Virus record (IMG/VR): IMGVR_UViG_3300031867_000002
Span: 1 to 64,000 of that record
Source: a virus
Lineage: Duplodnaviria > Caudoviricetes
Strand: one strand, 5' to 3'
Length of the DNA stretch: 64,000 nucleotides
Of the stretch, positions 16,616-49,579 are shown piece after piece (the stretch's first letter is position 1; each line of letters begins with the position of its first letter). Both the position numbers and the translations under genes were made by a program. Below the pieces are notes generated by a model. The model ran no database searches. It had not been told where the DNA came from and worked only from the letters and a program-made list of their open reading frames with translations.

Positions 16616-16696
16616 TCAGCTTATTAAAAGCTGACAATTTCCACGTTTTGTTTCAACATTTTCTCCAATATTTTATTTTATAATTCTCTGATTTTA

Positions 16697-16733
16697 ACCC
16701 CGCAGGAACATAGAGTCCTGCGGGGTCTTTTTA
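16697..16733. terminator. Intrinsic terminator
   Basis: accccgcagga-acataga-g-tcctgcggggt followed by a T tract. Confidence 0.8.
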
Positions 16734-19700
16734 TTAAAATTTGTGTCTTACTGAGTATTCTTGTTTGATACCCATAATATCTTTAACCTGACGGTCTAGT
16801 TCAACTAGACCCTTACCCATTAATGTGTATTGTAATGGAGCACAGCACATACGTTTATCGAAGCTAACCATAGATGCAATAGCATCAATTGGTTCATTAG
16901 GTCTATAAGAAGATGTAGGTTCTTCCCCTTCAGGTATTACTTCTTTAGCTACACCCTTTTGTGCACCTAAGAAGATTAGCTTATCTCCTACAGAGAAGTC
17001 GTCTTTATATGCTACAAAGATTTCAATCAATACACCATCTTCTACACCTTTAAGCTTACCATCTTGCTCAAGCTTTTGTGCTTTATATTGTTTAGAAAGA
17101 GTTTCATCGTATTTAGCAACCTGAGATGCTTTACGATTTTCTTTCTTTTCATATTCAGATACAATCTTCTTTAAAGAAGGAGACATCTCGTCAAGTTCAC
17201 AAGTACGATATATTCTAATATCTTCTACTATACCAGTATTATGAGATTTAATAGGAATACGTCCAAGAGAAGTAACCGTATCTTCATCATCTACAAGATT
17301 CTTTAAGAGTACGTTTACATCATTATCTTCAAATGTATTCTGAATAATTAATAATGGGTCACCTTCTTGTACAGGTTCTCCTACTTTAACCATGTTAAAT
17401 ACGTTAGTATTTTTAGATAATGTTACTGGTACTTCCATGATAACGCTAGAAGAAAGAGCGTCAGATATATAGCTTGACACCACACAAGAGTCTTCGAAAC
17501 CTTTATCTGATGTGATAATGGCAATCTTTGCAAGAGTACCTTGATTATAAGTAGCATTATCGTCATAACCACAATTAACAGTGTAAGACTTTGGGTCATA
17601 TGCAATCAACTGTCCTTTCTTTACAGTTTTACCTAATCCTTTTGCTGGTTCAAGTTTAATAGATGTATAAAAACCGCCATCAGAGTTTTTATAGACTTTA
17701 TTATTAAGGTCTACATAGTCTATATTACCATTATCATATTGTACTACAATATGGTCTTCATCTCTTTCAATGATTCTACCATCTGATTTAGCATTGAATG
17801 TAAATACATCTGGAGTAAATACAGAAAGAGCATCATCCATGCCGTTTGTAATAAGTAATGGGTCACCACCATCTACTCTCATATCATGCTTAGTTCTTTG
17901 TACATATGACATTGCAAGACGGAATGGGTCATCGTGTGTAGTACACATTGGAGTAAGATTTTCTGCAGTAGTCATAGTATTTACATCATTCATTGTATTA
18001 TTTTTAGCATCACCAGAGATATAACCACGTTTACTATTTACATTAGCATTAGTAGTAGCAACACGAGTAACACCAACAGTACCAGCAAAACCAGTAGACA
18101 TTCCTAATACATTAGTCATAGATTCATCATAAGTACGCTTTTCAAGAGAATAAGAACGGTCACTATTAAGACCAGATAATCCCTTAAAAGATACAGTATT
18201 ATTTGCTTCAGCATACCAAAGGTCATTAATTGTAGATGCATCAGAAGCTGTAGAGTCTGCCATAATAGCATCTATAATTGCAGATTGTTTAATTGTCATT
18301 GTAGCTTTACCTTGTTTCTTAAGCTTAGTTCTGTAATCAGCATAAGCTTTAGAAAGCTCCTTATAAGTATAACCAGCAATGATTTCATTTGTTCTAAATC
18401 TATTACCAGAGATATCTGTATGTTTATTAAACTTAGTATCGGAGAGTAAGTTATTAGAATAAATTAATCCCTCTACAAACTCTTCTGGAAGTTTATACAT
18501 TCTACATACACGCTGAGTAATAGGGTCAAACATTAAGTCATAGAAGTTATCAAGACCATCTGCTTTAATACGTCCACCAAAGTTGTCAAGCTGTTCTGTC
18601 CACATAGTTTTAGTATTAATATCCTTAATAGAATAGTCTTCCGTATCACATTCTTTAAGACCATTCATTAAGAGAGAAGAATTATAGTTAATTTTATAAG
18701 AAAGATAACCATCCTTGAATCTAATAGTATCCCATTCTGTTACGTCAAGTTTCTCTCTCTTATCAGAAATCTTATATTCAATTGCTGCCTTATTAAGAGT
18801 CTTGATAAGACCTTCGCAGTATGCACAAATAACAATTACTGGCATTTTAGTATTAAGAATAGATGCTTGAGAATATGCATACTTGACAGATGGCTTAGCA
18901 GCATCATAATGTTCTGCGAATTCTTTATCTTCACAAAGAGTTTCCGCAATAATGGTAGCACAGAATTTAGAACCATCGGAATAAATAATCTGTTTACCAT
19001 CATATCCAATTGGAAGACCCTTAGACAGGTCAATCTTATCAGCATACTTTTCTCTAATCTCATCTTGGTCAAAATAAAATGTGGTATTCTTATAAGAGAT
19101 TGTTACATATCCTTTACCAATATCAGCATAGTCCATCGGAATCTCATATTTAAGAGCAGTAATATTATTACTACCATTTCTAGTCATGATAGATTTACCA
19201 GAATATTTATCTAATGCTTTGATAAGTTTACCAGTAACTACATTAGACTTACCAATAGCAGAACCAAACTGATAGAAGAAAATCTTATTATAGTTTGTAG
19301 TAATCTGTGTAGTATCAGCTTCAGTCTTAATGATAGGAAGATTCATTAACTGAGCGTTAATAGTTTTATCATTGCCTTTGATTCTCATAAAGCGATTATT
19401 CTTAAGTAACGGAATATCAAATTTAAGATTGAATCTTGTACCAGAGATATCTTCGCATTGTACAGTCCATGTTTCTTTAAGGTCTTCAGATGTAGTAGTA
19501 TTTTCTACCTGCACATCTCTAATACCTACAGGAACTGTTCTAGTAGCAAAGAAATCTAAGATAGCCATAATATCTTCGTCTACATCATATTCTTCGTTGA
19601 AATTAATATATTGTAGATTATCCCATTGGTCATTATTGATACTATTAATATTAGCAGATGTAACTTCAAGCGGTTTATCATCACTTATATCTTCAGACTT

Positions 19701-21971
19701 TTCAATTAGTTCTCTAACTGATTTACCCTTAACTTTCTTAGACTTAAGGTCATCACTAAGAGAATTAATTCTAGCTTTACGAGTAGCAGAAGCTTTAATC
19801 TCAGTAGATTCTTCGTCAGAAATATCCTGAATAAGATTAGCAATATATTCATCATTATCAAGTTTATCTAGTGCTTCTTCTGTAGATGTAGAAGTAGCTG
19901 CAGCATCTTGAATCTTTGCAACAAGTTCTTCTTTTTTCTTTTCCGTAACTTCTTTAGAAACTTGTTTTTCAGTCTTAGGCTTATCGTCTTTATCTTTTAC
20001 CTTTACTGGTTTAGAAGATGTAGTCTTTTTAATTTCACTACTCTTTTGTGGTTTAGTTTGCGTTTCCTTTTCTCCATCTTTAGCCTTATTATCTGGTTCT
20101 GGTTTTTCTTCAAGTTTAGAAAGAATACTAAGCTTTCCTAGTGCTCCATAAAGTTCAATATTTTGAGACTTTTCAAGCTTATCAACAATATCAGTTACTA
20201 TTGCATCTGGAGAGTCCTGAACCATTTCATCATCTACAGGAACAGCTCTATTAAAGATATTATTGATATTAGAAATGAATCTTTGTAGTTGAGACTTTTG
20301 GAATTCTGTAAAGTTTACTTTGAAGTAAGTGTTATATCCAAAGAAGATTACATTATTATTTCCGAAGATTTTCTTAATCTGTTCAAAATTACCTTTCTTA
20401 ACAAGACGCACTATGGCACTTATAGGATTAAGGTCTTTGTTGTAATCAAATACATTAACATCTTTATTATAATAGTCCAGTACAGGAATAAAAATTGTTT
20501 TAGTCTTGTATTCTTTATCAATAGATTTATTATTAAGAAAACGATGTAGAGTTTCGGAGTACACTTTAAGTCCTTGTTCACCAAGCTTATTATTGTTTTC
20601 AATGAATAGCTTATTGTAATAAGAGATATCAAAGAATAGATTTAATCCTTTATATGCTGATACATTTACTTTAGTAAACTTAATAGCTGGACATTGAGAC
20701 TTTACAACACTATATACGTCAAATAATTCTTTTTGTGTACGAATTCTATCATCATACATATAGCGTCTAAGTTTGTTATCTACAGCATCTTCGTAAAATA
20801 TATCATCGTTAGGGAAATACACATTCTCACCAATCTGAATATATGTCTCTCCTATTACATTATTAAGAGAGAATGATTCTTTTACTTCTTGCTCTCCAAG
20901 TTTCTTCATGTCAATATAAATGACTGGATACTTTTCAGTTTTATTATAAGTCTTACCTAAAGCTTTTAGTGATGTAGCTCTATCTAGAACAGAACCATTT
21001 TGAATATATGATGTCTTAAGTCTTTTAATCAATACTTTATCTCTGTTAAGAGAATATACAGGAACTATTCTATCTTTAGTTTGATTAGCATACATGAAAT
21101 CTCTAAATACATAGATTAGATACTTAGTAATTTCTTCTTTAGCATCTTCATTATCAAAGCTATCATCTTCAAGATATATACAATATTCTAATCCATATAC
21201 TGGATGTTTATATGCTACTGCAAATCCAGCAAGATTATTTTCTTGGTCATGACATTTTACTAGAAACTTAGCTTTAACAAATAAATCTCCTACATATTTA
21301 AAATCTATAGGGTTCTTTACAATACTAAGACATTCTTTTGTTTCAGCTTTGATTTCTTTCTCACTCTTATAATAAGAGAATCTATAGTCTGTAAGATATT
21401 CTATAGGAAATGGCCATGTTGTGTACTTAGCTTCTTTAATAGGTTTCCAAAAAGCATGAAGTCTGTTTTCTTCACTCACTTCAATATCAGTAATGCCATA
21501 CTGTTTTACTTTCTTAATGATATTCTTAGCAAGCTTCTTTTCATATTCTACAGGACAATGGTTAAACATTCTGATTGCAGCTTTAACATGAGCTACATCA
21601 TTAAGAGGAAAAGAACGAGTCTCTGGAATACCAAATTCTGAATCTGGAAGTTCTTTTCTATCTTTAGAAGCTAACTTACCTTCATTAATAAAAGCTTGTA
21701 CTGTTTCATCTTCATACTGTACAAACTCTTGAATTTCTCCAGTATCAGCTTTAATAATAGCATTAATAGATTTATCTACATAGTATGACCTAAACCAGTT
21801 ACGATTAATAACCATAGGACAATTAATCATATCAATAGAAGAACTGATGTCAGGTGTTAAAAGATATATAAGACTCCCTTTTTTATTATTGTCTTTATCT
21901 AGAGGAATGAATAACTTATTACTTCCTCTATACATCTTAAGATTCTTTAAATCATTAACATGAATAGCCAT
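16734..21971 (-). CDS. Putative virion RNA polymerase beta subunit (large N-terminal part) with long N-terminal extension
   Basis: HDDPFRLAMS, GFEDSCVVS, GDKLIFLGAQKGV and PIDAI are RpoB motifs; ends before the RpoB C-terminal region; start moved to MAIHVNDL (AAAGGAG SD, late promoter 21999-22010). Confidence 0.85.
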   Translation of the reverse strand: MAIHVNDLKNLKMYRGSNKLFIPLDKDNNKKGSLIYLLTPDISSSIDMINCPMVINRNWFRSYYVDKSINAIIKADTGEIQEFVQYEDETVQAFINEGKLASKDRKELPDSEFGIPETRSFPLNDVAHVKAAIRMFNHCPVEYEKKLAKNIIKKVKQYGITDIEVSEENRLHAFWKPIKEAKYTTWPFPIEYLTDYRFSYYKSEKEIKAETKECLSIVKNPIDFKYVGDLFVKAKFLVKCHDQENNLAGFAVAYKHPVYGLEYCIYLEDDSFDNEDAKEEITKYLIYVFRDFMYANQTKDRIVPVYSLNRDKVLIKRLKTSYIQNGSVLDRATSLKALGKTYNKTEKYPVIYIDMKKLGEQEVKESFSLNNVIGETYIQIGENVYFPNDDIFYEDAVDNKLRRYMYDDRIRTQKELFDVYSVVKSQCPAIKFTKVNVSAYKGLNLFFDISYYNKLFIENNNKLGEQGLKVYSETLHRFLNNKSIDKEYKTKTIFIPVLDYYNKDVNVFDYNKDLNPISAIVRLVKKGNFEQIKKIFGNNNVIFFGYNTYFKVNFTEFQKSQLQRFISNINNIFNRAVPVDDEMVQDSPDAIVTDIVDKLEKSQNIELYGALGKLSILSKLEEKPEPDNKAKDGEKETQTKPQKSSEIKKTTSSKPVKVKDKDDKPKTEKQVSKEVTEKKKEELVAKIQDAAATSTSTEEALDKLDNDEYIANLIQDISDEESTEIKASATRKARINSLSDDLKSKKVKGKSVRELIEKSEDISDDKPLEVTSANINSINNDQWDNLQYINFNEEYDVDEDIMAILDFFATRTVPVGIRDVQVENTTTSEDLKETWTVQCEDISGTRFNLKFDIPLLKNNRFMRIKGNDKTINAQLMNLPIIKTEADTTQITTNYNKIFFYQFGSAIGKSNVVTGKLIKALDKYSGKSIMTRNGSNNITALKYEIPMDYADIGKGYVTISYKNTTFYFDQDEIREKYADKIDLSKGLPIGYDGKQIIYSDGSKFCATIIAETLCEDKEFAEHYDAAKPSVKYAYSQASILNTKMPVIVICAYCEGLIKTLNKAAIEYKISDKREKLDVTEWDTIRFKDGYLSYKINYNSSLLMNGLKECDTEDYSIKDINTKTMWTEQLDNFGGRIKADGLDNFYDLMFDPITQRVCRMYKLPEEFVEGLIYSNNLLSDTKFNKHTDISGNRFRTNEIIAGYTYKELSKAYADYRTKLKKQGKATMTIKQSAIIDAIMADSTASDASTINDLWYAEANNTVSFKGLSGLNSDRSYSLEKRTYDESMTNVLGMSTGFAGTVGVTRVATTNANVNSKRGYISGDAKNNTMNDVNTMTTAENLTPMCTTHDDPFRLAMSYVQRTKHDMRVDGGDPLLITNGMDDALSVFTPDVFTFNAKSDGRIIERDEDHIVVQYDNGNIDYVDLNNKVYKNSDGGFYTSIKLEPAKGLGKTVKKGQLIAYDPKSYTVNCGYDDNATYNQGTLAKIAIITSDKGFEDSCVVSSYISDALSSSVIMEVPVTLSKNTNVFNMVKVGEPVQEGDPLLIIQNTFEDNDVNVLLKNLVDDEDTVTSLGRIPIKSHNTGIVEDIRIYRTCELDEMSPSLKKIVSEYEKKENRKASQVAKYDETLSKQYKAQKLEQDGKLKGVEDGVLIEIFVAYKDDFSVGDKLIFLGAQKGVAKEVIPEGEEPTSSYRPNEPIDAIASMVSFDKRMCCAPLQYTLMGKGLVELDRQVKDIMGIKQEYSVRHKF

Positions 21972-22106
21972 ATACATACTCCTTTCGTAGTTTGATATTA
22001 TGTGAATGTTCAAGATACATATTTGTAATGATTGTTTAACATAATTGTATATAATTATAGTAGTAACAAGTATAAAAATAAAAGTAAACAAAAAGGAGGA
22101 TTTACT

Positions 22107-22466
22107 ATGTTACAGAAGGAATATCAGATTAATTATGCCGACATTAGAACTAATAAATCTGAGGTCGGCGAACTTTTTATCATCCAGACTGATAAAAGAA
22201 GAATGGATGATGTTCATCGACTTCAGCCTATAGAGGTTGAAGTCGAAGCCGAAGCTGTAGAAGAAAATTTTGATGCAGATAAATGCATTAATACATCTGT
22301 ATCAATATTTATGCTATTTTCATTTCTCGCCGTTATATTCGGATGCTTTTACCTGCATCCAGTAGCTTCTACAGTTGTTGCTGTTGCTACTAGTATTTCA
22401 GCTCTGTTTATTAACAGAGCTGTAAGATTACACGATATTCGTGTAGCTAAGAAACAGCGGGATTGA
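22107..22466 (+). CDS. Small membrane protein in an early cassette
   Basis: AAGGAGG SD; two C-terminal hydrophobic helices; terminator about 22476-22507. Confidence 0.7.
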   Translation: MLQKEYQINYADIRTNKSEVGELFIIQTDKRRMDDVHRLQPIEVEVEAEAVEENFDADKCINTSVSIFMLFSFLAVIFGCFYLHPVASTVVAVATSISALFINRAVRLHDIRVAKKQRD

Positions 22467-22506
22467 CAGGACAATAAAGAAGCGGGATGATAGTCCCGCT
22501 TCTTTT

Positions 22507-25143
22507 TTATCTGTAAGACCAAATAATATTACCATCTGTAATTATATCGTTATCATTTTTAAGAAGTATTACATCACACTCACTCATCTGTATTTCAGAG
22601 TTATGACTAATCAATACACACTGAGAAGCTTTTACTAAAGACATGAGTTTATAAAGAATAGTTATAAACTCTCTTCTGTTTTCTGAATCAAACGGAGCAT
22701 CAATTTCGTCTCCAACAATAATGTTTAATTTAGTAGATGTTTGACTCAATAGAGCAATAGATATAATCATAGAGATTAAGGATACTTGTGCTGAAGACAT
22801 ACTTGTAATATCATCATGATTGATACCACCATTTACAGCAACAGGAATTCTAAATTCACTTTCTGTTACTACTAATGGTAACAATGCAAAGACACCTCCA
22901 AATAATCCACTCAGTATATTATTAGCGCTAGCGAGAATCTTATTAAGATACATATTAGCAAACAGTAATTGGATACCTGTAGTAGGAGAACAGTAATATC
23001 TAAGAGTATCAATCTTTTCATACATTGTTTGATACTTGTTTAATTCTTCTGTGTACTCTATACTATTTCTAATCTTATAGTTTAAAGATTCTCTTTCTTC
23101 TCTTAAAGGTTTGAGATGTTCTTTAAGTTCTTTAATATTTATTTCTAGTTTTGATAAGTCTTCGTTTATTTTTTGTAGTCTATCTATATTAGTTCTATTA
23201 GTTTCAATCTCATCTTTTAGTATTCTAATAGAATCATCTAGATTATTTATCATAGCAGTCTTTTCTAAATAACTATCATACAAGTCTATTGTAACACTTA
23301 TTCTTTTGAAATCAGAGTTGATATCATTTAATACTCTATTGAGTTCTGTAATAGTTTTAGTATCAGATTCTAGTTGATTCTGAAGTCTAGATATATCAGA
23401 AACAATCATATTAACGAAATCTTCTTGAGATGATAAAGCGTGATACTTGTTTTCAATATCACTAAGAGATTTAGAAATCTTCCTGTATTCTTCTATATCG
23501 TTTATATAATCCAATACACCTCTAATAGTAATCATTATGTTATTACTATCATATTTAAGCTGTTGTATACAATTCTCAAAAGTATCAAATCCAAAGTTAA
23601 GAAGTCTAAATATTCTTTGATTAACTGTATATAGTTTAAGAAGATATCTATTGTTACTAATTATATCAAGTCTTTGTTGATACACATCTTTATCTCTATT
23701 AAGCTGAGATATAGATTTAGTATTCTTTTTAATACTAATCATGTTATCTAGTATAGTCTTTGCTTTTAATGCATCTGCTATAAAGGGACAAGAATCATCT
23801 CTACAAGTAGATGGACGTTTTTCTAATATAGATACTTTATCTTCTGCTGATGCTATACGATTATTATCATTCACAAGTTGTTCTATACTATCTTCTATAT
23901 TCTTGATTTCTGATATACACATTCTATATTCGTTATCTAAATCTCCAGATATAATATCTGTAGTAGACAATATATCAATCATCTCTTTTATGATTTTATA
24001 TATACTTATGAATTCATCTGAAGTTATATTGTTAAGACTTACAATACTACCCCATCTACTTTCAATCTTACGTTTCTTATCATTTAATTCTTCTTTAACT
24101 CTTTTTACATCTGACAACGAACCAGCAGAATTAATAGATTTAAGTTTTGTTGTTTTAACTTGAAGCTCTTCGCTATCTACTCTACGAGATTCGGTTAACA
24201 TAGTTATCTTACTATTAATTGAGCTAGCTTTATTAGACAACTCAATTAATTTTGCTCTAAGTTCTGTAACAAGTTCTGGTGTTATATTCATTGTTATTAT
24301 ATCAGGATACTTGGTGTATATTTTTCTAAGCTCCTTGTCAACTTCATTGCGTTTTTCTTGATATTCAGACAAACTAGAAACAAGTCTATCTATACGCTCT
24401 CTAATCTTATTATCTGGGTCTATAGACTGGAGCATTCCTTTTTCTTTATTCATTATTTCAGTTTGTCTTTCAATAGCAGATTCATACTCTTCTATCCTTG
24501 TATCAAGAGCACTAATTGACTGTTCTAATTGAGTTACATTACCTATATTATCAATCTTAGCAGCAATTGATTGTACAAGTGCTTTCAGATTAGATGCTTT
24601 CTTACTTAATACTTTATACATATCATTATATACATCGGTAGCTGATAAGATAGCATTAACATAACGCTTTCTATCTCCAGGTTTTAAATCTGCAATACCA
24701 CGTTTAGTACTAGATAATTGAGTAAGAGCTATATAGTTAGGGTCTAGTTGTAATTCTTCATATATCACGTCTTTACATCCAGTAATATTACCAGAAGGAT
24801 TTAGTTCTGATATAAATCCATTAACACTTTTTGATATATAACCTTTTGTAGTTCTAGAAGACACACCTTTACATTCATGAATAAATCTAATAGAATATAC
24901 AGTTCCAGTAATCTCATCTATATATTCAATTTCTTTCATAGCATTCTTACCAGCAATAAAAGCACTATTATCATCTGGTAATGGTTTAAGTGCACTTTCG
25001 ATAGTGCTTTTACCAGAACCATTATCTCCTTTGATAAGAATAATTCTGTGTTGACATTTGGTAAAATCAATTTCGATTTCATTAAGACCAAGACCATTGT
25101 ATATACCACCATAGTTCACGAGTTTTAATCTTTTTAATAACAT
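22507..25143 (-). CDS. sbcC: SbcC/Rad50-like ATPase
   Basis: GDNGSGKST Walker A, coiled coils with central CxxxxC (CRDDSCPF) hook, MSSAQ signature, IVGDEID Walker B, ISH. Confidence 0.88.
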   Translation of the reverse strand: MLLKRLKLVNYGGIYNGLGLNEIEIDFTKCQHRIILIKGDNGSGKSTIESALKPLPDDNSAFIAGKNAMKEIEYIDEITGTVYSIRFIHECKGVSSRTTKGYISKSVNGFISELNPSGNITGCKDVIYEELQLDPNYIALTQLSSTKRGIADLKPGDRKRYVNAILSATDVYNDMYKVLSKKASNLKALVQSIAAKIDNIGNVTQLEQSISALDTRIEEYESAIERQTEIMNKEKGMLQSIDPDNKIRERIDRLVSSLSEYQEKRNEVDKELRKIYTKYPDIITMNITPELVTELRAKLIELSNKASSINSKITMLTESRRVDSEELQVKTTKLKSINSAGSLSDVKRVKEELNDKKRKIESRWGSIVSLNNITSDEFISIYKIIKEMIDILSTTDIISGDLDNEYRMCISEIKNIEDSIEQLVNDNNRIASAEDKVSILEKRPSTCRDDSCPFIADALKAKTILDNMISIKKNTKSISQLNRDKDVYQQRLDIISNNRYLLKLYTVNQRIFRLLNFGFDTFENCIQQLKYDSNNIMITIRGVLDYINDIEEYRKISKSLSDIENKYHALSSQEDFVNMIVSDISRLQNQLESDTKTITELNRVLNDINSDFKRISVTIDLYDSYLEKTAMINNLDDSIRILKDEIETNRTNIDRLQKINEDLSKLEINIKELKEHLKPLREERESLNYKIRNSIEYTEELNKYQTMYEKIDTLRYYCSPTTGIQLLFANMYLNKILASANNILSGLFGGVFALLPLVVTESEFRIPVAVNGGINHDDITSMSSAQVSLISMIISIALLSQTSTKLNIIVGDEIDAPFDSENRREFITILYKLMSLVKASQCVLISHNSEIQMSECDVILLKNDNDIITDGNIIWSYR

Positions 25144-25319
25144 CGTAATTCCTCCTTATTGCGTACGCTGACGTTTATATATTAGTTCTAGATAGTGTAA
25201 AAGCAGACTAAATCCCATGAGGATAACCTCATGGGATTAGACTTCGTTAAAAAAGGAGTCATTTTTTATGAATTCTTTACAACGATTGTAGGAATTGGTG
25301 GCTGGTTTATGGAAACCAG

Positions 25320-25395
25320 TGGTCGAGATGGCTGGGCTCGAACCAGCGACCAGCCCCTTATAAGGAGGCCGTTCTACCGACTGAACTACACCTCG
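25320..25395 (-). tRNA. tRNA-Ile (TAT)
   Basis: cgaggtg/catctcg acceptor, gcctc-ctTATaa-ggggc, GTTCGAG T-loop, CCA. Confidence 0.85.
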
Positions 25396-25401
25396 AATAA
25401 A

Positions 25402-25475
25402 TCGGGATGACAGGACTCGAACCTGCGGCATCTTGGTCCCAAACCAAGCACTCTGCCAAACTGAGTTACATCCCG
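25402..25475 (-). tRNA. tRNA-Pro (TGG), CCA not encoded
   Basis: cgggatg/catcccg acceptor, cttgg-ttTGGga-ccaag. Confidence 0.9.
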
Positions 25476-25481
25476 TTCTAG

Positions 25482-25687
25482 GGTTGTTATAAAACTAGGT
25501 AGTTCAGTATCCGAATGTGGATACCTTATACAAAATCTCAAACATCAGTATCTAGAATGATGATGACTATCGCTAGCGTTAATAGTCAAGCTTTTGGATT
25601 CTATCTCTTAACTAAATTTCTCAATCCCAATAAAGGATATATTGAAAGATAATAAAGTGTTTTGATTAAACTAAGTTTATAACAACC
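25482..25687 (-). ncRNA. Candidate structured RNA of about 206 nt directly upstream of tRNA-Pro
   Basis: Ends form a 12-bp perfect stem GGTTGTTATAAA/TTTATAACAACC; internal hairpins gtatcc/ggatac and tgactat/atagtca; no ORF. Confidence 0.5.
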
Positions 25688-25843
25688 AATGGACATTAAT
25701 ACAAGGAGTTATCTTATATTAATGATGTATGACCCAGCAACTAAGTTACTGGGTCGCCTAGACTGTCTAGACAAGTAGGAGGTCACATTGGCACACCATG
25801 GCAGGAAACCAATGTTTATGTCAAACCGTGAGGTTGTAGCAGG

Positions 25844-27206: not shown

Positions 27207-27217
27207 ATTATCTCTCC

Positions 27218-29230: not shown

Positions 29231-29986
29231 TTAAAATTCATTTATTGTATCTGCAGTAACAATCTGACCATTATTAGATTCTACAACACCATTATCATTT
29301 AATACAGGCATACCTCTAATGGCATGACGGTAGAAATCTTCATAATCAGAATCATGTTCCCCATCGCCAACCCAAGTGAGAATAATTCTCTTACCCATCG
29401 GATTAGCTACATTAGGATTCATATCTTCAATAATCAAAGTAGTTCTGATATCAAGATTTCCTGATATTGAACTATACTTTGCTGCAGTGATATCATTACC
29501 ATTAAACTTTCTTCTATCATTATTAAAGTCAGGACCAAACTTTTCTGCATAGCGATTAATATCACATTGTTTTTCTGTTACAGCCATCTTAAGACCAAGA
29601 ATTAAAGCTTTATCGTTAACAGGGTCAATAACAGGAGTAAATACATTACTACTATTAACAAGATGATTGAATTCATCTTTTTCAAGTTTTTCTTTTGCTG
29701 CTACTACATCTTTAAAAGTTGAAGCAGATACAAAATATGCTAGATGGACCGTAGAATAATCTAATGCTTCATTATCATCTCTTGGATATACTGGATACCA
29801 AAATATCCCGTCAAAATAGATTCCAGGTTTTATTACTTGAGAAGTATTTCTAACAGGTAAAATATAGTTACCCATATTAACTGCAAGAGCATCTCCGTTA
29901 TAAGATATCCATCCAAAATCTTTCTGTTCAATGACATCATAGATACGACCATCTATGAATGCCTTATTAAATACTGCCTGATTCAT
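29231..29986 (-). CDS. Hypothetical protein in the nvRNAP operon
   Basis: 251 aa, AAAGGAG SD. Confidence 0.8.
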   Translation of the reverse strand: MNQAVFNKAFIDGRIYDVIEQKDFGWISYNGDALAVNMGNYILPVRNTSQVIKPGIYFDGIFWYPVYPRDDNEALDYSTVHLAYFVSASTFKDVVAAKEKLEKDEFNHLVNSSNVFTPVIDPVNDKALILGLKMAVTEKQCDINRYAEKFGPDFNNDRRKFNGNDITAAKYSSISGNLDIRTTLIIEDMNPNVANPMGKRIILTWVGDGEHDSDYEDFYRHAIRGMPVLNDNGVVESNNGQIVTADTINEF

Positions 29987-30058
29987 TTAATATCGACTCC
30001 TTTAATATTAAAAATAATGCAGGTTGACCGAAGCCAACCTGCATCTTTAGACTATACC

Positions 30059-38292: not shown

Positions 38293-38298
38293 ATTAAA

Positions 38299-40439: not shown

Positions 40440-40660
40440 CGTAACGTAAGTTTAAAAAAGAATACGACTGTCGTGAGACAGGCGTTTCTTTTTTGTACTT
40501 AATATCATTATAATATAAATATTCACATAAGGAGGCAATACATGATATCTATGCTCCTTTCTAGTTTATATGTAAAAGTTGATTTATATACATATATATT
40601 ATAGATGTGTAAGTATAAGTTAATCATCTCATTTATAAAATATTAAAGGAGGAAAAAACA

Positions 40661-41155: not shown

Positions 41156-41269
41156 TGAATGAGCTTCAATACTGATAATAAAAAGAATACGACTGTCGTG
41201 AGATAGGCGTTTCTTTTTTGTCTTTAACATCATTATAATATAAATCCACATAAGGAGGTAATATGTATT

Positions 41270-42127: not shown

Positions 42128-42232
42128 TTATTTGGGATGCTATCATAGCATCCCAAATTTCTTTTGTATATTATTAATGTGTAAGAGGTTACTGAAAACA
42201 GTTATAAAGACTACGACCTCTGGAGGTATATT

Positions 42233-42667
42233 ATGTTTGACATTATTCGTATTACATCTATTGGTTCGACTCCTGAAACTTTATATCAGGAACTTGAAAC
42301 AGAAGAAAAAGAATCTTCTCTTACAAGAGAAGAGTTCTGGAACGATATGACTACTGACACTATTTCAGAAGAGCACTTTAATTTTCAAGCTCTTTATAAC
42401 TCCGCTGAAGATGTTATTGTTATGCGGAGATTTATAAACAGACACACTGGGAAATCAACTAATCAAATCACCAATGCTGATGAGATTGAAAGAATTCTTA
42501 CAGATTTTCTTAATGGAAAACCTGTATACGATGATGACTACTCCATTTCAAGATGTAGGGTAATGCAGATTAGAGAAAGATATTATAGATATATCTGCCG
42601 TACAACTAAATCTATACTTTACCGTAGCTACCATGAGTTCTTAAAATGGGTGAAGAATATGAAATGA
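42233..42667 (+). CDS. Hypothetical early cassette protein
   Basis: GGAGGT SD; terminator 42674-42710. Confidence 0.75.
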   Translation: MFDIIRITSIGSTPETLYQELETEEKESSLTREEFWNDMTTDTISEEHFNFQALYNSAEDVIVMRRFINRHTGKSTNQITNADEIERILTDFLNGKPVYDDDYSISRCRVMQIRERYYRYICRTTKSILYRSYHEFLKWVKNMK

Positions 42668-42822
42668 TAGTATAAAAGAATCCGCTTTTATAAAAGCGGA
42701 TTCTTTTTTTGCTATGCTCCGTAAAAGTTTACTATGTTACTTATATATTATTTAAGTAAGAAGAGAGTCATATTGTTTAACAATGACTCAAAAAATATTG
42801 CTTTTGAAAGGAGCAGATTACT

Positions 42823-43239
42823 ATGATGACTACAATTAAAATTAACTCTAAAGAAATAAAAAGATTCAACGAAGAGGAAAAAAGAAACCATGAAAATATT
42901 TTTATGGTTTTAACCGATATTAAGGGTGATAAGTATTTAATAGCCCACGGCATTGGCGGTTACATAATCGCTGATGACGGTATCGGAAGAACACCGAGCC
43001 AGACTTATGCAAGATTAGTAAAGCTAGGTAAAATCGAAAACGGTGAGCATTTAAATATTGCTTGCTGTTTTGGAGGCGATATTGACAATGATTCTGAAAA
43101 TGTATCTATTGTCAATAATGAATCGGCACCATTATTCATAACACGTCAAGTGTTAAATAATGGCATAGGCAGATTAACGATGTTCACGAAAACAAAAATT
43201 CGTGACAGAGTTAAGGCTGCAATTTCAGTATTTATATAA
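42823..43239 (+). CDS. Early cassette protein, possible caspase/CHAT-like His-Cys fold
   Basis: YLIAHG...LNIACCFGG. Confidence 0.5.
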   Translation: MMTTIKINSKEIKRFNEEEKRNHENIFMVLTDIKGDKYLIAHGIGGYIIADDGIGRTPSQTYARLVKLGKIENGEHLNIACCFGGDIDNDSENVSIVNNESAPLFITRQVLNNGIGRLTMFTKTKIRDRVKAAISVFI

Positions 43240-43314
43240 TAAAAGAAAACGACTGTCGGGAGATAGGCGTTTCTTTTTTGTCTCACTAGCACAACTTTTT
43301 AGTAATGAAAGGAG

Positions 43315-44520
43315 ATGATTCCTAACATGGCTAATAACGCTAATTTGAAGATTACTGAGGTTATTGATAAAGAGATATATCCTATTGTACAAGGTGTATT
43401 GTCTAAGTCATTAAACAAGTATAAAGCACTCATGTCTAAGTTTATGAATGCTAGGTCTACATCTCTCTATGATACTTTCCCTGCAACTCGTTGTACTTAT
43501 GGACAACAAGATGCGGATGAGTTATATGCTGTTTTTGGTAAATCAGAAAGGGAATTACAAGAGATTATTAATAAGACTTACTATTCTCAAATTCCAAATT
43601 TTAATCCACGTACTGCTAAGAGTCCAGTAACTGTATTATGTATTACTATTATTAAGTATTTCATATCTAAGAATGATAAGAAGAATCTTGATGTAGCTAT
43701 TATATACATGTCTTTTTCTGGTGGATTTTATCCATCTATTCATTATGGCTCTTATCCTACTGCAGTACCAGCGGATTATAGATTCGTATGTGACTATGTA
43801 GTTAATAATGAGTTGTCTAATAAGTTTGATTTAAAAAGAACAGGTTCTGTAGTTGGAACCATTCAATCCATCGGTGCTACATGGGTTGATGCATATAAGG
43901 ATAAGTTCAAGGGAGTTACAGATGATGAAGAATATGTATATGTAATTCAACAGTTACATATGCGTATTAAGTCGTTTATTCAGAATACAGCAGAAATCTA
44001 TTATAAGTGTTATAAGAATCGTGAATATCTCACATATGATAGTGATGATATGTCTGAAGATAATTTTAGACTTACAGAGAATGATAGCACTAAGATTGAG
44101 GCTATTACTAACCGTGCAATGACATGGATTACTACACATGATGTAGATTATCGTCTATGTAAGATGTGTAGCGATAGTAATGTAAAGACAGAAGAAATCA
44201 AATCTATCATTGAGAGTATTGTTAAGAATACTGATAATATAGACACTGTAAGAGAGTTAGTTGCTCTTATTACAGCAAACTATTTTAAAGCTAGTAAGAA
44301 TAAAGATGTAAGAGATATTGAGTTTATCTCTTTCTCTATTAAGGCTAAGCCTAATACAAAAGACAAAGATATTCTACGACAGAATGAAATTATAGATACA
44401 TTCTTGTGTGAGAATAGTATTGCATATAATCGTCGTAAAAGTAGAGAAGCAACAAAGAATAGTTATAACAGAGCAGTTTTAACATACTTTGTTCTAGTAA
44501 TCAATCAATCTAATAAGTGA
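43315..44520 (+). CDS. Hypothetical late protein
   Basis: 401 aa; late promoter at 43293. Confidence 0.8.
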   Translation: MIPNMANNANLKITEVIDKEIYPIVQGVLSKSLNKYKALMSKFMNARSTSLYDTFPATRCTYGQQDADELYAVFGKSERELQEIINKTYYSQIPNFNPRTAKSPVTVLCITIIKYFISKNDKKNLDVAIIYMSFSGGFYPSIHYGSYPTAVPADYRFVCDYVVNNELSNKFDLKRTGSVVGTIQSIGATWVDAYKDKFKGVTDDEEYVYVIQQLHMRIKSFIQNTAEIYYKCYKNREYLTYDSDDMSEDNFRLTENDSTKIEAITNRAMTWITTHDVDYRLCKMCSDSNVKTEEIKSIIESIVKNTDNIDTVRELVALITANYFKASKNKDVRDIEFISFSIKAKPNTKDKDILRQNEIIDTFLCENSIAYNRRKSREATKNSYNRAVLTYFVLVINQSNK

Positions 44521-44529
44521 GGCGTCGGT

Positions 44530-44979
44530 ATGGATTTTTATAATGATTTATTAAATGAATCGATTGTAGATAAATTTAAAGAAGGTAACTATTATTCAAG
44601 ATTTACGGTGGCTATATCGGAAGCTTTAGCTAATGGTGAATCAATTAATATAGAAGTAACTTTAAAATCTAAAGATAATAAAGGATATCTTAAAACTACT
44701 TTTTATTCTAAAAACGAATACTTATATAGAAAACAAGAAATCAAAGATAAGGTCATTAAAGATTCTTATACCACAGATTCTATATGTAATATTCCTAATA
44801 GAACTGTGTTCAATAATATCATATCAAGATATATTAGTAACGATGAATTTAAATTAACTATTAAAAAAGTTGTTTCATTTGATTCATATGAAGACTTAAT
44901 TAAAGAACCAGAATATCAAAATCATTTGAATTACGAAACTGTTAATTTTAATCCTATTGCTGAAACAAAAATTATATAA
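44530..44979 (+). CDS. Hypothetical protein, probable internal head protein
   Basis: N-terminal LLNES putative protease site. Confidence 0.6.
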   Translation: MDFYNDLLNESIVDKFKEGNYYSRFTVAISEALANGESINIEVTLKSKDNKGYLKTTFYSKNEYLYRKQEIKDKVIKDSYTTDSICNIPNRTVFNNIISRYISNDEFKLTIKKVVSFDSYEDLIKEPEYQNHLNYETVNFNPIAETKII

Positions 44980-44990
44980 AAATAAGTGAG

Positions 44991-46346
44991 GTGTGTAAGT
45001 TGGGTATATATGCAGATAGAGCTTTATTAGAGCAAAAGTCTGACCAAGCTTTTATACAAGCTGTTAATGAAGTATACTTTGGTAGAACAGCCAGTATAAA
45101 TTCTTTATTTAATGCATACTGTGATTGGAGAGAACCATTTATATCTAGTACAAAATACTACACAGGTGAATATAAAAATGTGTATAATAAAGATATGCAA
45201 GTATTTAGAGATATGGTATGTAAACAGTTTGGTTTTAAAACATTCTCATATAATGTATTACCTATGGCTGAGCCTAATTCTTTTACATTGGGTTCATTTT
45301 TTCCGTTAAGTAATAGAACACCTGATAAGATTATAATAGATAAGAACGGATATAGATTCAAAGACAATACTATAGTAAGTTCTATAGTAGCAGTATTTCC
45401 AGAATTAATTTTTAATCCAGAGTATTCTAATGAAGAAAATTTTTCTATATTTTTGCATGAAATAGGGCATAATTTTCAAAGTGCTGCAAACAATACTATG
45501 TTTGGATTAACAGTTGGTGAAGATATAATACTTGCATTTATGGGAGCTCTACCTAGTTTATTATTATATAATGACTATACTTATACTGCAGTAAATTTTA
45601 TACAAAATAAATTGTCTGATATTAAAGTGTTATCTACGTTATATGCATGTGTATCTATGATAATATATGCTTTAACAAGATGTAAAACTTTTATACAGGG
45701 TTGGAGTTCTGTACTCTTGATTCCTATAGGGGGTATATTATCATTCGCAAAGCGTCTTGAATCATTTTTAAGGAGTATACTTAACCTTTCTGCTATAAGA
45801 GGTTATTATGGTGAAAGATTTGCTGATGGATTTGCAGCTTCTTATGGATTTGGAGAAGCGTTATCATCAGCTTTAAGAAAAATGGATACTGTTATAACAG
45901 CAGAACCAACAGTAGATGATTTAATTAATAAAGCACCAATAATAGGTCATATAATGAATGCAGCATGTTTACCAGGTATGATGCTTTGTGGTATTATTGA
46001 CGTACATCCTAACACAGCATCGAGATGCTATTCTGTTATTAAAGACTTAAAAACAGATTTAAACGACCCTAGTCTTTCTCCAGAATTAAAAAAACAATTG
46101 AAAAAAGAAATAGATTCTTATGAAAACACAATGCATAAATTTTTCGATGTTGCTACTAAAGCTGAAAATCCAAGATTATTACCTACAATTATACAAAAGT
46201 GGATGTATGAAAAAGGTGGAGACCTTAAATTTAAGATATCCGAACTTCCGTTTAATAATATTGGTGGATTTAGGGCAGAAACTAATAAAACGAGAGATTA
46301 TATTAAAAATGATAGATATAGTATAAAAACTGCAAAAATTATATAA
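44991..46346 (+). CDS. Zinc metalloprotease (M48-like), probably virion-associated
   Basis: FLHEIGH, GERFADGFA, HPNTASR; hydrophobic segments; start codon uncertain. Confidence 0.75.
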   Translation: MCKLGIYADRALLEQKSDQAFIQAVNEVYFGRTASINSLFNAYCDWREPFISSTKYYTGEYKNVYNKDMQVFRDMVCKQFGFKTFSYNVLPMAEPNSFTLGSFFPLSNRTPDKIIIDKNGYRFKDNTIVSSIVAVFPELIFNPEYSNEENFSIFLHEIGHNFQSAANNTMFGLTVGEDIILAFMGALPSLLLYNDYTYTAVNFIQNKLSDIKVLSTLYACVSMIIYALTRCKTFIQGWSSVLLIPIGGILSFAKRLESFLRSILNLSAIRGYYGERFADGFAASYGFGEALSSALRKMDTVITAEPTVDDLINKAPIIGHIMNAACLPGMMLCGIIDVHPNTASRCYSVIKDLKTDLNDPSLSPELKKQLKKEIDSYENTMHKFFDVATKAENPRLLPTIIQKWMYEKGGDLKFKISELPFNNIGGFRAETNKTRDYIKNDRYSIKTAKII

Positions 46347-46359
46347 GGGAGGTTTTATT

Positions 46360-47274
46360 ATGGACTTTAATATAAACGATTTCTTCTTCTTACTGGAAGC
46401 TGATGATGAAGGTAAGAAAGAAGAAGATGAAAAGAAGGACGATGAGAAGAAAGAATCTGAATCTAAAGAAGATAAAAAAGAAGAGGATGATAAGTCCTCT
46501 GATGAAGATGATTCTGAATATAACGACCTTATGGATGATGATAATGCTGATTCTGAGTTATCTGATGATACCGATACTGATAGTGATTCATCCGATGACA
46601 TTGATAGCGATTCATCTGATGATGATGAATACAATGACTTAATGGATGATGATATTGGAGACTTATCTACAGATGATGATGAACCAGTAGCAGATGATTC
46701 TTCTGATGATTATAATACTCTTATTGTTGTAAAAGAACCTGATGGTAGTGAATCTTCTTCTGGAGATGTATTTGAGAAGCTTGCTAAATATGCATATGCT
46801 TCTCAAGTAGTTGCTAATAATTTTTCTCATATTGCTACTAATGCATGTGGACCTAATTATGACACAATTAATCAGATTTGTAGTACACTATCAGATAGAT
46901 TAAATTGGGGTGTTAGAGATATTCTTAGTACTGCATCTGAATCTCCTCTTGTTAAGATTGATAACTTAACTAGAGCTAAAGAACATGTAGAAGATATTGA
47001 AGTAGAAGATAAAGATTCTTATGATATTTCTTTAGCGTGTGAAAGAATTAATAACAATCTTACTATTCTCATTAAGTATGCTAAAGATGCAGCTGATGCA
47101 GCTGGTAACAGAACAGACATTCAACGTAAAGTAGATGATGATATTTCATATTTCTCTAAGGAAATGAATGGTAGAATTAGAAAGATTATGACTACTCCAT
47201 CATCTGCTATTGATGATTGTGGTGGATGCGAAGAAGTAGAACCTGCTATGGAATCTTATAATATATTATTCTAA
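46360..47274 (+). CDS. Highly acidic protein with possible Dps/ferritin-like C-terminal bundle
   Basis: N-terminal LLEA, D/E/S-rich tract, NFSHIATNACGPNYDTINQ. Confidence 0.6.
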   Translation: MDFNINDFFFLLEADDEGKKEEDEKKDDEKKESESKEDKKEEDDKSSDEDDSEYNDLMDDDNADSELSDDTDTDSDSSDDIDSDSSDDDEYNDLMDDDIGDLSTDDDEPVADDSSDDYNTLIVVKEPDGSESSSGDVFEKLAKYAYASQVVANNFSHIATNACGPNYDTINQICSTLSDRLNWGVRDILSTASESPLVKIDNLTRAKEHVEDIEVEDKDSYDISLACERINNNLTILIKYAKDAADAAGNRTDIQRKVDDDISYFSKEMNGRIRKIMTTPSSAIDDCGGCEEVEPAMESYNILF

Positions 47275-47309
47275 AAGAAAGTCCCACTGGATATAACCAG
47301 TGGGACATT

Positions 47310-47609
47310 TTAACTTTCAATTTCAACAATAGGTAATCCGTTAGATATGTCGTAACTACAAACTAGCATAGCATACATTACAGCATCTTTACCAGCTTCC
47401 CATAAACAAGTATCTACAAGTTCTTTATCATACTTATCATCTATAGAAATAGTAATCTCATTTCCAGATAATAAGATGTTAGAATTTATATTATTCTCAT
47501 TTAGTTTACCTCTATAGATATCAATGATATCCATAGAGGTATTTACAGATGGCTCTAGTCTGTTTAAATTAAGAGTTAAAGTCAATTTCAACACCCTCCA
47601 CATTAGCAC
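47310..47609 (-). CDS. Hypothetical protein (start uncertain)
   Basis: ORF fills the gap to terminator 47281-47306; no clear SD. Confidence 0.45.
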   Translation of the reverse strand: MLMWRVLKLTLTLNLNRLEPSVNTSMDIIDIYRGKLNENNINSNILLSGNEITISIDDKYDKELVDTCLWEAGKDAVMYAMLVCSYDISNGLPIVEIES

Positions 47610-47826
47610 GCAATACTAAAATGTCGAGATAATGATTCATAGCTTTAAGTTGGTCATTATAAAGACCTCTAGGACAAGTAGGCTTGAATTCTAATGTACC
47701 ATCATCCCATTTTTTAAGCATTGCTTCAAGTCCATCAATACGTGTTTTAAGCTGATAGAATTCAGCTTTAAATCTTTCTTTATAATCGCTACTATTCATC
47801 ATATTTACAGTTTCATTAAGTTTCAT
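47569..47826 (-). CDS. Conserved small phage protein (crAss001_48-like)
   Basis: MNSSDYKERFKAEFYQLKTR...FKPTCP...QLKAM..YL.IL..RA. Confidence 0.7.
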   Translation of the reverse strand: MKLNETVNMMNSSDYKERFKAEFYQLKTRIDGLEAMLKKWDDGTLEFKPTCPRGLYNDQLKAMNHYLDILVLRANVEGVEIDFNS

Positions 47827-47840
47827 TATAATTACCTCCA

Positions 47841-48368
47841 TTAATCAAGTGTTGTCCAATTGGGACAAGGAGAAGAAACCTTAAGTCCTTCATGTGCAGG
47901 AATGATAGTTTCAGCCTTTTCGTATCTAGGTGTTCCATCATCATTCACACCAGTCTTCATCGGGAACTTCTTTTGAGATTCAGGAATTTCTTTAATTTGA
48001 ATTGAGATATTAGATTTTTCTGTAGCTCCAAGATTAATCTTTCTACCTGTTCTAAGAGCACAGTTGAAGAAATCCTTAGACAGAGTAACCATAGTCTCTG
48101 CATCAGATTTTTTAACATCATAATTATCAGCAATAGACTGAGCTTCAATTTTAGGCATCTTAGTTGTAGATGCAATGATATTAGCTGTCATATCTCTAAA
48201 ATCTTTTGCTGGACAATGTTGTTCATGAGTAGCATAATCTGTAACAATAAAATCTTTGTCGTTAAGCATAGCTCTCATAACAGTTACTTCATCACGTTTA
48301 GATGCAGATTTCTGTTTAAGATTATCGTGAATATCCTTGATAAGGTCTTGTACGTTCATAGATTCCAT
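47841..48368 (-). CDS. Hypothetical protein, weakly HU/IHF-like C-terminus
   Basis: GRKINLG...IIPAHEGLKVS. Confidence 0.6.
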   Translation of the reverse strand: MESMNVQDLIKDIHDNLKQKSASKRDEVTVMRAMLNDKDFIVTDYATHEQHCPAKDFRDMTANIIASTTKMPKIEAQSIADNYDVKKSDAETMVTLSKDFFNCALRTGRKINLGATEKSNISIQIKEIPESQKKFPMKTGVNDDGTPRYEKAETIIPAHEGLKVSSPCPNWTTLD

Positions 48369-48383
48369 AATGGTATCCTCCTA

Positions 48384-48572
48384 TTAATTATTAATGATTT
48401 GTATATGTTTATTGTCTTTCTTTAGATTATCCCATTGAAAGGCGAATAAAGCATCGTTAGCATTGTTCTTTCCATTCTTTTTAATGTATTCGTTCAATTC
48501 TTCTGGTGTTGAACTAGCTAAAAAAGAAATAAAATCTTCTCGTTCATTTTTAGTCATTGGTGACTTTTTCAT
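48384..48572 (-). CDS. Hypothetical protein
   Basis: 62 aa, AAGGAGGT SD, late promoter at 48622. Confidence 0.7.
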   Translation of the reverse strand: MKKSPMTKNEREDFISFLASSTPEELNEYIKKNGKNNANDALFAFQWDNLKKDNKHIQIINN

Positions 48573-48688
48573 ATAATTACCTCCTTAAGTAGTCTGAGAG
48601 ACTACTCATTTATAAATATGTTTCTCGCTTAGTAAAAAACATACGTATTGCGTCGTTTAACATTCATATAATAAGGAGGCTGATATAT

Positions 48689-49456
48689 ATGATTAGCGAA
48701 AATTCTATGATGAGTATTCCAGTAAATGAAAATGATATAATCAAGATTCCAAAAGATTTACCTGATATGGAATTAGAAGATTATGATTTGATAGATGATA
48801 AAGATAGAGAAAAGTATATTACTGATTTAGAACGACATATTAGAGCTTCTTTTGAATACCGTCAAATGGTTCAATATCTAAGAGAATATATGAACATGAA
48901 TTCTTGTGCATTTATTCCTAATGTAACTAATGAGTTTAGTAGAAAGGTTAGAATAGAATTACATCATTCTCCATTTACATTAAGAGATATTTGTTGTATT
49001 ATTCTAAATAAGAGAATGAAAAATGGAGAAATGTTAACTATTGAATCTGTAGCATATGAAGTTATGTTTAATCATTATTGTCTTATGGTAGGATTGATTC
49101 CTTTATCTGAGACAGTACATGAATTAGTACACACTCAATACTTATTCATTCCTACAAATAAAGTATATGGGTATTATAAAGCATTTCTAAGTGTATACAA
49201 AGAATACATTGACCAAGAGTTATTAGATAAGCTAGATGAATTAGAAAAGCTTACTATTGCTGGTACTTATAATGATACTTATAAACAAGTATTAGAAAAG
49301 AAGTATATTACTATTGATATGGAAGGTAATAACCAATTTGAACAGCTTCATGATTTACAAGATATACTTAAACAAAGATTGAGTGAGATTAAAGAAGCTG
49401 AAAAACCTCAAGGTACTTTTGCTAATTCTAATATAATGCATCCAGATAATTTATAA
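48689..49456 (+). CDS. HNH-like nuclease-fold protein
   Basis: IELHHSPF...GLIPLSETVHELVH; late promoter at 48659. Confidence 0.6.
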   Translation: MISENSMMSIPVNENDIIKIPKDLPDMELEDYDLIDDKDREKYITDLERHIRASFEYRQMVQYLREYMNMNSCAFIPNVTNEFSRKVRIELHHSPFTLRDICCIILNKRMKNGEMLTIESVAYEVMFNHYCLMVGLIPLSETVHELVHTQYLFIPTNKVYGYYKAFLSVYKEYIDQELLDKLDELEKLTIAGTYNDTYKQVLEKKYITIDMEGNNQFEQLHDLQDILKQRLSEIKEAEKPQGTFANSNIMHPDNL

Positions 49457-49579
49457 GAGAGATAATAACTCCCAGGGCATGGAGACCCTGGGAGTTATCT
49501 TTTAAAGGAGTCATATTATGAACAGCATCCGCCAAACGAGGAAAAACAAATGTACCACTCCATGCCCTAAGAGTGGTTT

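Follow-up and report, generated by a model that had tools for sequence, protein, structure and literature searches.

The window analysed here covers the initial 64 kb of the 224,632-bp IMG/VR virus record of an uncultivated gut or rumen jumbo phage; the whole record has direct terminal repeats and a G+C content of 31.7%. Six tRNA genes are present genome-wide (Glu, Pro, Ile, Gln, and two tRNA-Leu), every one of them inside the window. Behind tRNA-Glu, tRNA-Ile, and tRNA-Gln lie noncoding tails of 80-115 nt overall, each leading from the tRNA end to an intrinsic terminator, and these tails are the subject of this analysis. Two of them contain a module that is the mirror (reverse complement) of a translation start site. 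The features of the three loci are as follows.

16527-16539, + strand: AAC-N7-TAA promoter motif (motif scan), resembling the AR9 late promoter and ending 1 nt before tRNA-Glu
16541-16615, + strand: tRNA-Glu (CTC), CCA encoded (ARAGORN, Rfam)
16616-16634, + strand: Glu tail, 7-bp hairpin TCAGCTT/AAGCTGA, from the first base after CCA
16635-16696, + strand: Glu tail, 62-nt U-rich open stretch with CUCC at 16663-16666 (fully unpaired in RNAfold; P(unpaired) 0.97)
16697-16726, + strand: Glu terminator hairpin, with a T run to 16736
25175-25187, - strand: AACTAATATATAA promoter motif of the SbcC-like gene (22507-25143, - strand), the downstream limit of the Ile tail
25211-25238, - strand: Ile terminator hairpin, with a U-rich tail to 25198
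25249-25279, - strand: Ile tail, mirror start-site module TAAAGAATTCAT-N9-CTCCTTTTTT, CTCC at 25255-25258
25302-25319, - strand: Ile tail, 7-bp hairpin CTGGTTT/AAACCAG directly after CCA
25320-25475, - strand: tRNA-Pro and tRNA-Ile (ARAGORN, Rfam)
49464-49499, - strand: Gln two-way terminator hairpin, common to a convergent gene (48689-49456, + strand)
49501-49525, - strand: Gln tail, mirror start-site module GTTCAT-N7-CTCCTTTAAA, predicted unpaired, CTCC at 49507-49510
49554-49577, - strand: Gln tail, 7-bp hairpin ACCACTC/GAGTGGT, 2 nt after CCA (8 bp in RNAfold)
49580-49654, - strand: tRNA-Gln (ARAGORN, Rfam)
49660-49672, - strand: AACTAAATAATAA promoter motif (motif scan), ending 5 nt before tRNA-Gln

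As the original prediction held, a hairpin, a CAU..CUCC segment, and a terminator follow each of the three tRNAs. The first hairpin begins 0-2 nt past the CCA in all three tails, and RNAfold gave the same succession of hairpin, open middle, and terminator for each of them (z-scores -4.5 to -7.1). The part before the terminator is 80-81 nt, about one tRNA long. The Glu terminator abuts the stop codon of a convergent 1785-aa gene (16734-22091, - strand), and the U-rich end of the Ile terminator reaches into the upstream part of the SbcC promoter region. The usual distance between convergent genes in this genome is 35-60 nt and the two convergent spacers with a tRNA tail are 118 and 123 nt, so that tRNA-containing spacers are ~80 nt longer than the usual convergent spacing of this compact genome.

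The nearest named phages are the Bacillus phages AR9 and PBS1, to whose counterparts the SbcC-like ATPase is ~26% identical; megablast of 10.5 kb against GenBank phages gave no match. Hundreds of closer relatives (55-99% identity) were found in gut and rumen assemblies by a search that gave 645 relatives in all. We compared the three syntenic loci of one relative, G001 (83% SbcC identity), and ~40 further contigs (37-85% identity); a search for additional Gln-locus relatives yielded no genomes beyond this sampled set. Words and hairpins were counted in 20 representative tails, from the tRNA end to the terminator stem, with shuffles as the expectation; the 20 tails are related by descent and not fully independent.

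An AAC-N7-TAA motif is located just 5' of tRNA-Leu(tag), tRNA-Glu, and tRNA-Gln, with gaps of 10, 1, and 5 nt, respectively. The late promoter consensus of AR9 is AACA-N6-TA/G, and the single tRNA gene of that phage is late (PMC5312081); the motif found here fits this consensus. Among the tRNAs of this phage and its relatives, 30 of 64 have the end of the motif 1-16 nt upstream (0 in a reversed-sequence control), and these 30 comprise essentially every unit-leading tRNA apart from tRNA-Pro. Because the promoter motif precedes the tRNA and a terminator closes the tail, the tails appear to be transcribed with their tRNAs, and within each unit the last tRNA leads to the intrinsic terminator with no intervening gene. 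The count of three tRNA operons given in the original prediction has to be corrected: tRNA-Glu has its own promoter motif, and there are at least four tRNA transcription units. One tRNA, tRNA-Leu(tag), has no tail, and an HNH endonuclease gene comes next.

The tRNA content is freely variable among relatives at each locus. The locus upstream of SbcC contains Pro, Pro-Ile, Pro-Met, Pro plus a tRNA called Tyr(ata) by ARAGORN, a decayed tRNA, or none; the Gln locus contains Gln or Gln-Met; and the Glu locus contains Leu-Leu-Glu, Leu-Leu-Met, or Leu-Leu. The tail remains on whichever tRNA is last, and in L065 a Glu-type tail directly follows tRNA-Leu(taa). When the tails were compared with the identity of the tRNA in this way, the design was found to recur whatever tRNA is last, with tail sequences that are unrelated.

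CTCC is present in 11 of the 20 tails (2.2 +/- 1.3 in shuffles), which places it at the top of all 256 4-mers (z 6.6); among 5-mers, TCTCC ranks highest (z 7.6). The permutations CCTC, TCCC, and CCCT, at 2 each, are at expectation (GGAG, 2), indicating that letter make-up alone is insufficient to account for CTCC. The excess was also observed without the three tails of this phage (8/17 vs. ~1.7 expected) and in a rough clade-by-locus recount (~9/20 vs. ~2 expected), and the density of CTCC is ~10 per kb in tails versus 1.3 per kb on the sense strand of the other co-directional spacers of the genome. TCTC and CTCT are enriched too (13 and 10 tails, respectively, vs. 4.8 expected). For the CUCC words, the predicted P(unpaired) averages 0.79 and is above 0.7 in 8 of 12. 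GGAG, the complement of CUCC, was found in 163 of 185 start sites of the phage; the predicted structures thus expose a seed complementary to the core of the Shine-Dalgarno (SD) sequence.

A perfect stem of at least 6 bp that starts no more than 3 nt from the tRNA end was detected in 7 of the 20 tails, compared with 0.25 expected from shuffles, and in 9 of 20 with longer loops permitted. Relatives compared at one and the same locus have unrelated hairpin sequences in the same position, including TCTGAC/GTCAGG, GAGTGTT/AACACTC, CCTTGAT/ATCAAGG, ACCCTC/GAGGGT, TTGGAT/ATCCAA, an 11-bp stem in L040, ACCAGATAG/CTATCTGGT, and GCTGTTCT/AGAACAGC. One compensatory double change was found (TTGGAT/ATCCAA vs. 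TCGGAT/ATCCGA), and at the Glu locus the stem is retained and the loop is variable in G001, L065, and L066. The hairpin adjacent to the CCA is common, not universal.

The sequence shared by the Ile and Gln tails, TTCATAA-N(1-3)-ATGACTCCTTT, occurs in the window only at 25252-25272 and 49504-49522 (0.00 expected), in agreement with the similarity first noticed between the two tails. Read on the opposite strand, the module is a textbook start site, that is, AAAGGAGTC, 5-7 nt, and ATGAA. Ten relatives with 60-100% SbcC identity all retain ACTCCTT and ATTCAT unchanged at the Pro/Ile locus, while the spacer (7-12 nt), the flanks, and the terminator stem around the module all diverge; the Ile terminator stem differs in sequence among relatives with its pairing retained. 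The Gln terminator core CTCCCAGGGTCTCCATGCCCTGGGAG is identical in G001.

The original prediction also pointed to an 11-nt complementarity between the Gln tail and the SD region of the gene at 29986. The match is exact, GACTCCTTTAA (49502-49512, - strand) being complementary to TTAAAGGAGTC (29995-30005, - strand) in the ribosome binding site (RBS) of gene 29231-29986, but it is no better than that with any start-site-like sequence and is not conserved. The mirror of the module scores 34 against this gene, whereas real start sites score 32.7 +/- 4.7 against the best other start site, and the SD of the homologous gene reads AAAGGAA in G001, L065, and L066 with the module unchanged. The module mirror looks like an average start site of this phage. 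A specific target at gene 29986, which ranks second for the Gln tail and falls inside the shuffled range, was rejected. Against all 185 start sites, the Ile and Gln tails showed better predicted binding than shuffled tails (z of about -2.8 and -4, respectively), and binding predicted for the Glu tail was no better than that of its own shuffles.

Pairing in cis with the SbcC RBS on read-through transcripts was also considered and rejected, as the SD folds with another tail segment (AAUUCCU), which is missing in G001, and the invariant A of the module mismatches GGAGG. The SbcC 5' region itself (25144-25200, - strand) is almost invariant down to 55% protein identity, far better conserved than the protein. 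It contains, in order, AACTWATATATAA, ACGTCAGCGTACG (with the palindrome GCGTACGC), and AAGGAGGAAT, and may be an operator. In addition, a box of the form (C)TACAC-N6-9-AATAATATATAA recurs genome-wide (e.g., 125620, 128881, 135905, and 156154, + strand), often with a hairpin ~10 nt downstream, and resembles a second promoter class of the early type; both this box and the AAC-N7-TAA motif can be recognized in the SbcC promoter region.

In both this phage and its relatives, the terminator is usually preceded by a hairpin and an exposed CUCC, which gives the tails the appearance of functional small RNAs (sRNAs). We tentatively favor a model in which processing of the tRNA sets free a tail RNA whose 5' end is protected and whose anti-SD seed is open. 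Transcription of each tRNA unit would start at the AAC-N7-TAA promoter and extend over the tRNA(s) and the extra 80-115-nt tail up to the intrinsic terminator, the non-virion RNA polymerase of the phage being the probable enzyme, and the cut at the tRNA 3' end would turn the tail into a small RNA of its own. The 5' end created by this cut, 0-3 nt before the hairpin, would be shielded from 5'-to-3' decay, and the 3' end would be the terminator hairpin; such a design suggests a stable molecule. Work by Bechhofer reportedly showed that a 5' stem-loop is protective only with at most a few nucleotides before it, a rule which the 0-3-nt offset of the hairpin in the tails matches. Decay by RNase J in Bacillus is governed by the 5' end (PMC3997798). 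Between the two hairpins, the released RNA would present an A/U-rich open stretch with the CUCC word, which in the Ile and Gln tails lies within a full mirror of the consensus start site (AUUCAU, spacer, ACUCCUUU). The open word may pair with SD regions (GGAG), and the full modules with AUGAA start regions too. Such pairing might lower ribosome loading on a set of messages, in a generic manner and not aimed at gene 29986. An extension of this proposal, which we consider somewhat doubtful, is that a clade of gut/rumen jumbo phages attaches an anti-RBS RNA to each late tRNA unit, the processed tail titrating SDs and re-weighting late translation.

A number of observations weigh against the favored reading. 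About half of the representative tails lack the hairpin and about half lack CTCC, the two features are not linked, and the 20 representatives share ancestry. The word reads UCUCC or ACUCC and almost never CCUCC, although GGAGG accounts for 75% of phage SDs; since GGAGG is the majority form, a general anti-SD would be expected to read CCUCC, though U-G wobble is possible. The Glu CAU..CUCC segment, likewise taken for an anti-SD in the original prediction, does exist in this phage, but G001 has a 10-nt deletion and L065 and L066 have no CTCC. The Glu-locus CTCC therefore flickers among the four closest genomes: this phage has it at its own site, G001 has one 25 nt farther along the tail, at a position occupied by CTCT in this phage, and L065 and L066 have none. 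An anti-SD role of the Glu segment is not supported. The Gln locus of G001 lacks the module and has an extra tRNA(CAT) instead, and at the Pro/Ile locus the module is missing from L033, L040, and most of the 56% clade. The module also persists where the tRNA is gone (L036 and L068) or decayed (L037 and L038), indicating that it is independent of the tRNA immediately upstream. No single target exceeded shuffled controls among the 185 start sites, and genes with a GGAGT-type SD form no promoter class when examined for a link to the promoter motif. Judged from sequence comparison, the common tail design is nevertheless real and selected, beyond chance, as the relatives show, and an anti-SD reading is plausible both for the family as a whole and for the Ile/Gln modules.

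The first alternative is that the tails are tRNA processing or insulation spacers, in which the hairpin and a minimum distance to the terminator help the tRNA to fold and its 3' end to mature; on this view, UCUCC would serve as a recognition site of a nuclease or other protein, or be a by-product of a U-rich make-up with C over G, instead of a pairing seed. This explanation would fit the constant position of the hairpin, always 0-3 nt from the tRNA end whatever the tRNA, and the distance from tRNA to terminator, which is never less than 36 nt among relatives. The use of UCUCC instead of the SD-matching CCUCC, the enrichment of TCTC and CTCT, the lack of a target above shuffles, and the rapid turnover of features in close relatives are also in its favor. 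However, the permutations of CTCC are at expectation, so that letter make-up alone does not suffice, and the tails extend up to 80-90 nt before the terminator, beyond the needs of a spacer. Moreover, a role in tRNA processing would not keep the Pro/Ile module invariant in relatives without the tRNA, and we know of no nuclease or protein site reading UCUCC, which also counts against this explanation. We regard it as rather unlikely.

The second alternative is that the Ile/Gln motif is a real RBS and start codon on the opposite strand, where either the act of translating a micro-open reading frame (ORF) matters or ribosome binding stabilizes an antisense transcript. The pattern is start specific: of 123 sites in this genome at which AAGGAG precedes ATG by 5-11 nt, 103 are real gene starts. 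In the 10 relatives, the opposite strand reads AAGGAGT, 6-11 nt (7-12 from GGAG), and ATGAAT, so that SD and ATG are held at a working distance while the spacer sequence drifts, and ATGAAT is invariant. A scan of IMG/VR with the exact motif gave 20 matches in unrelated phages, which are reverse complements of ordinary gene starts or intragenic, none of them linked to a tRNA. The resemblance of the module mirror to an average start site and the start site of a 10-aa ORF elsewhere in the genome (see below) point in the same direction. However, the opposite-strand ORFs range from 6 to 58 aa, share only Met-Asn, and tolerate a frame-shifting 1-nt indel inside the conserved nucleotides, which suggests that the conserved entity is a nucleotide element and not a peptide; a conserved opposite-strand peptide was rejected, none being found among the relatives. 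Both in the G001 group and at the Gln locus, the ORF extends into a tRNA gene in antisense orientation, and the Gln site lies just past the terminator of a convergent gene. No AAC-N7-TAA (late-type) motif was found on the opposite strand near either site, early-type promoters not being rigorously modelled. The base after GGAG is always T, compared with G in 75% of real sites. In addition, many other tails have CTCC without a mirrored ATG, and promoter and terminator were found on the sense strand only, both of which favor a sense-strand role. A function of the opposite strand is thus improbable.

The last alternative is one of scars and chance: recombination would have inserted and removed tRNA cassettes, inverted remnants of gene starts and stray palindromes would have stayed behind, and the seeming common design would result from shared descent and from an observer looking out for CTCC. 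It is consistent with the different tRNA content of all three loci in close relatives, the direct repeat CACCATCA around the tRNA-Glu cassette, the HNH endonuclease gene within the cluster, the loss of the Glu CTCC in the nearest relatives, and the common ancestry of the representatives, but it also has a low probability, because the enrichment holds without the phage's own tails, CTCC is top in a scan of all 4-mers and not merely a pre-chosen word, ACTCCTT and ATTCAT are invariant islands between diverged flanks where decay would be expected, and the hairpins vary in sequence, not position, with one compensatory change. An origin of the tails as decayed tRNAs (pseudo-tRNAs) was rejected, as no tail gave a tRNA match even at E values up to 10.

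Several observations were made on the tRNA genes themselves. The tRNA-Glu cassette (promoter motif and tRNA; 16499-16622, + strand) lies between direct repeats made up of the CCA ends of the tRNA-Leu(taa) and tRNA-Glu genes, and exactly this cassette is missing from L065; therefore, gain and loss of tRNAs seems to occur by recombination at the 3' ends. The HNH_3 endonuclease ORF (15994-16407, + strand; Pfam E value 1.6e-11, plus a treble-clef zinc domain) is situated between tRNA-Leu(tag) and tRNA-Leu(taa) and is probably a homing endonuclease within the tRNA cluster. It is absent from G001, where the two tRNA-Leu genes are adjacent, and a similar ORF follows tRNA-Leu(tag) in L046 and L066. 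A tRNA-Lys(ttt) gene that is missing from this phage is present in L041 (8352-8470) and in the same place in L033, L035, L039, L040, L042-L049, L065, L066, L076, and L082; an SD and a gene start 15-35 nt downstream of it, suggesting that this tRNA is part of an mRNA 5' leader and has no tail. In L037 and L038 (both 9300-9400), a ~45-nt tRNA-Pro remnant consists of the acceptor stem and T arm only (CGGGAC...GAGTTCGAATCTCGGAGTCCCG) and is not called by ARAGORN. The 368-nt ORF-free stretch 5' of tRNA-Pro (25476-25843, - strand) contains several hairpins and two CTCC words, with no promoter motif close by; relatives have 400-840 nt of structured noncoding sequence in this position (e.g., L036). 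This stretch may be a further noncoding RNA locus.

Outside the three loci, a separate promoter-to-terminator unit near 167.0 kb contains tandem CAT-spacer-TTCCTCTT modules on a protein-less strand. Similar to the tails, it has a CAT, a spacer, and a pyrimidine anti-SD word on the transcribed strand; unlike them, it is a stand-alone unit with tandem modules and no tRNA attached, and it was not counted as independent evidence. A dispersed family of orphan mirror start sites was rejected, as a strict scan of the genome revealed few real orphans in addition to the modules of the two tails, those of the 167-kb unit, an SD/anti-SD palindrome at about 40.5 kb, and, near 147.3 kb, the start of a 10-aa ORF read in reverse complement. 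The palindrome, AAGGAGG..CATG..CTCCTT (40525-40560, both strands), lies between two + strand genes, and its SD and mirror would fold on each other. The 10-codon ORF (147338, - strand), which has a strong SD, is located in an unusually long convergent spacer of 208 nt (genome positions 147229-147436, outside the window).

Phage tRNA genes are usually discussed as codon suppliers only. If the tails work as proposed, each unit would have two products, one transcript supplying both the tRNAs and an abundant tail RNA protected by its 5' hairpin, and the tRNA 3' cut would double as the step that makes the small RNA. Such an arrangement would be a simple, promoter-free means of timing a translation regulator with late transcription in jumbo phages that carry their own RNA polymerases. 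Should the tails have no regulatory role, a strict rule on spacing and hairpins in phage tRNA units would still follow from them and would need an explanation.

A search of Rfam 15 gave no family match for the tails (best scores of 17-27 bits vs. cut-offs of 39-72), only the tRNAs passing. The small-RNA region of phage T4 adjoins a homing-endonuclease gene (segB), comparable to the probable homing endonuclease in the tRNA cluster of the present phage. Two small RNAs of unknown role, RNAC and RNAD, come from the tRNA region of T4 (PMC3014915); compared by location only, they are, like the tails, phage small RNAs beside tRNAs, but they depend on the host polymerase and have no known anti-SD feature. 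A hallmark of sRNAs in Gram-positive bacteria is an unpaired UCCC (RsaE and RNAIII of S. aureus) or CU-rich anti-RBS motifs (LhrC of Listeria) (PMC8383071). The tails resemble these RNAs in that, close to a terminator hairpin and within A/U-rich sequence, they have a short C-containing word that is unpaired and able to pair with the G-rich RBS. They differ in that the word is CUCC (mostly UCUCC) and not UCCC/CCCC, usually lies in an open linker instead of an apical loop, and occurs once per tail.

The closest known system is 3'ETS-leuZ (3' external transcribed spacer), which, according to a secondary account, is a spacer of the E. coli glyW-cysT-leuZ tRNA operon that is freed as the tRNAs mature and functions through base pairing (Lalaouna et al. 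2015, described in PMC8383071). Both this RNA and the tails are noncoding and lie between the last tRNA of an operon and an intrinsic terminator. 3'ETS-leuZ is chromosomal, binds Hfq, and sponges the sRNAs RyhB and RybB, whereas the tails belong to phage units with a phage-type promoter, carry a 5' hairpin, and have an open word that mirrors RBSs instead of an sRNA seed. By this analogy, the tails would be a phage variant of the 3'ETS-leuZ kind. If so, they would represent the first 3'ETS-type regulator of a phage, with the tRNA as a processing handle, and would extend the single well-studied bacterial case to viruses.

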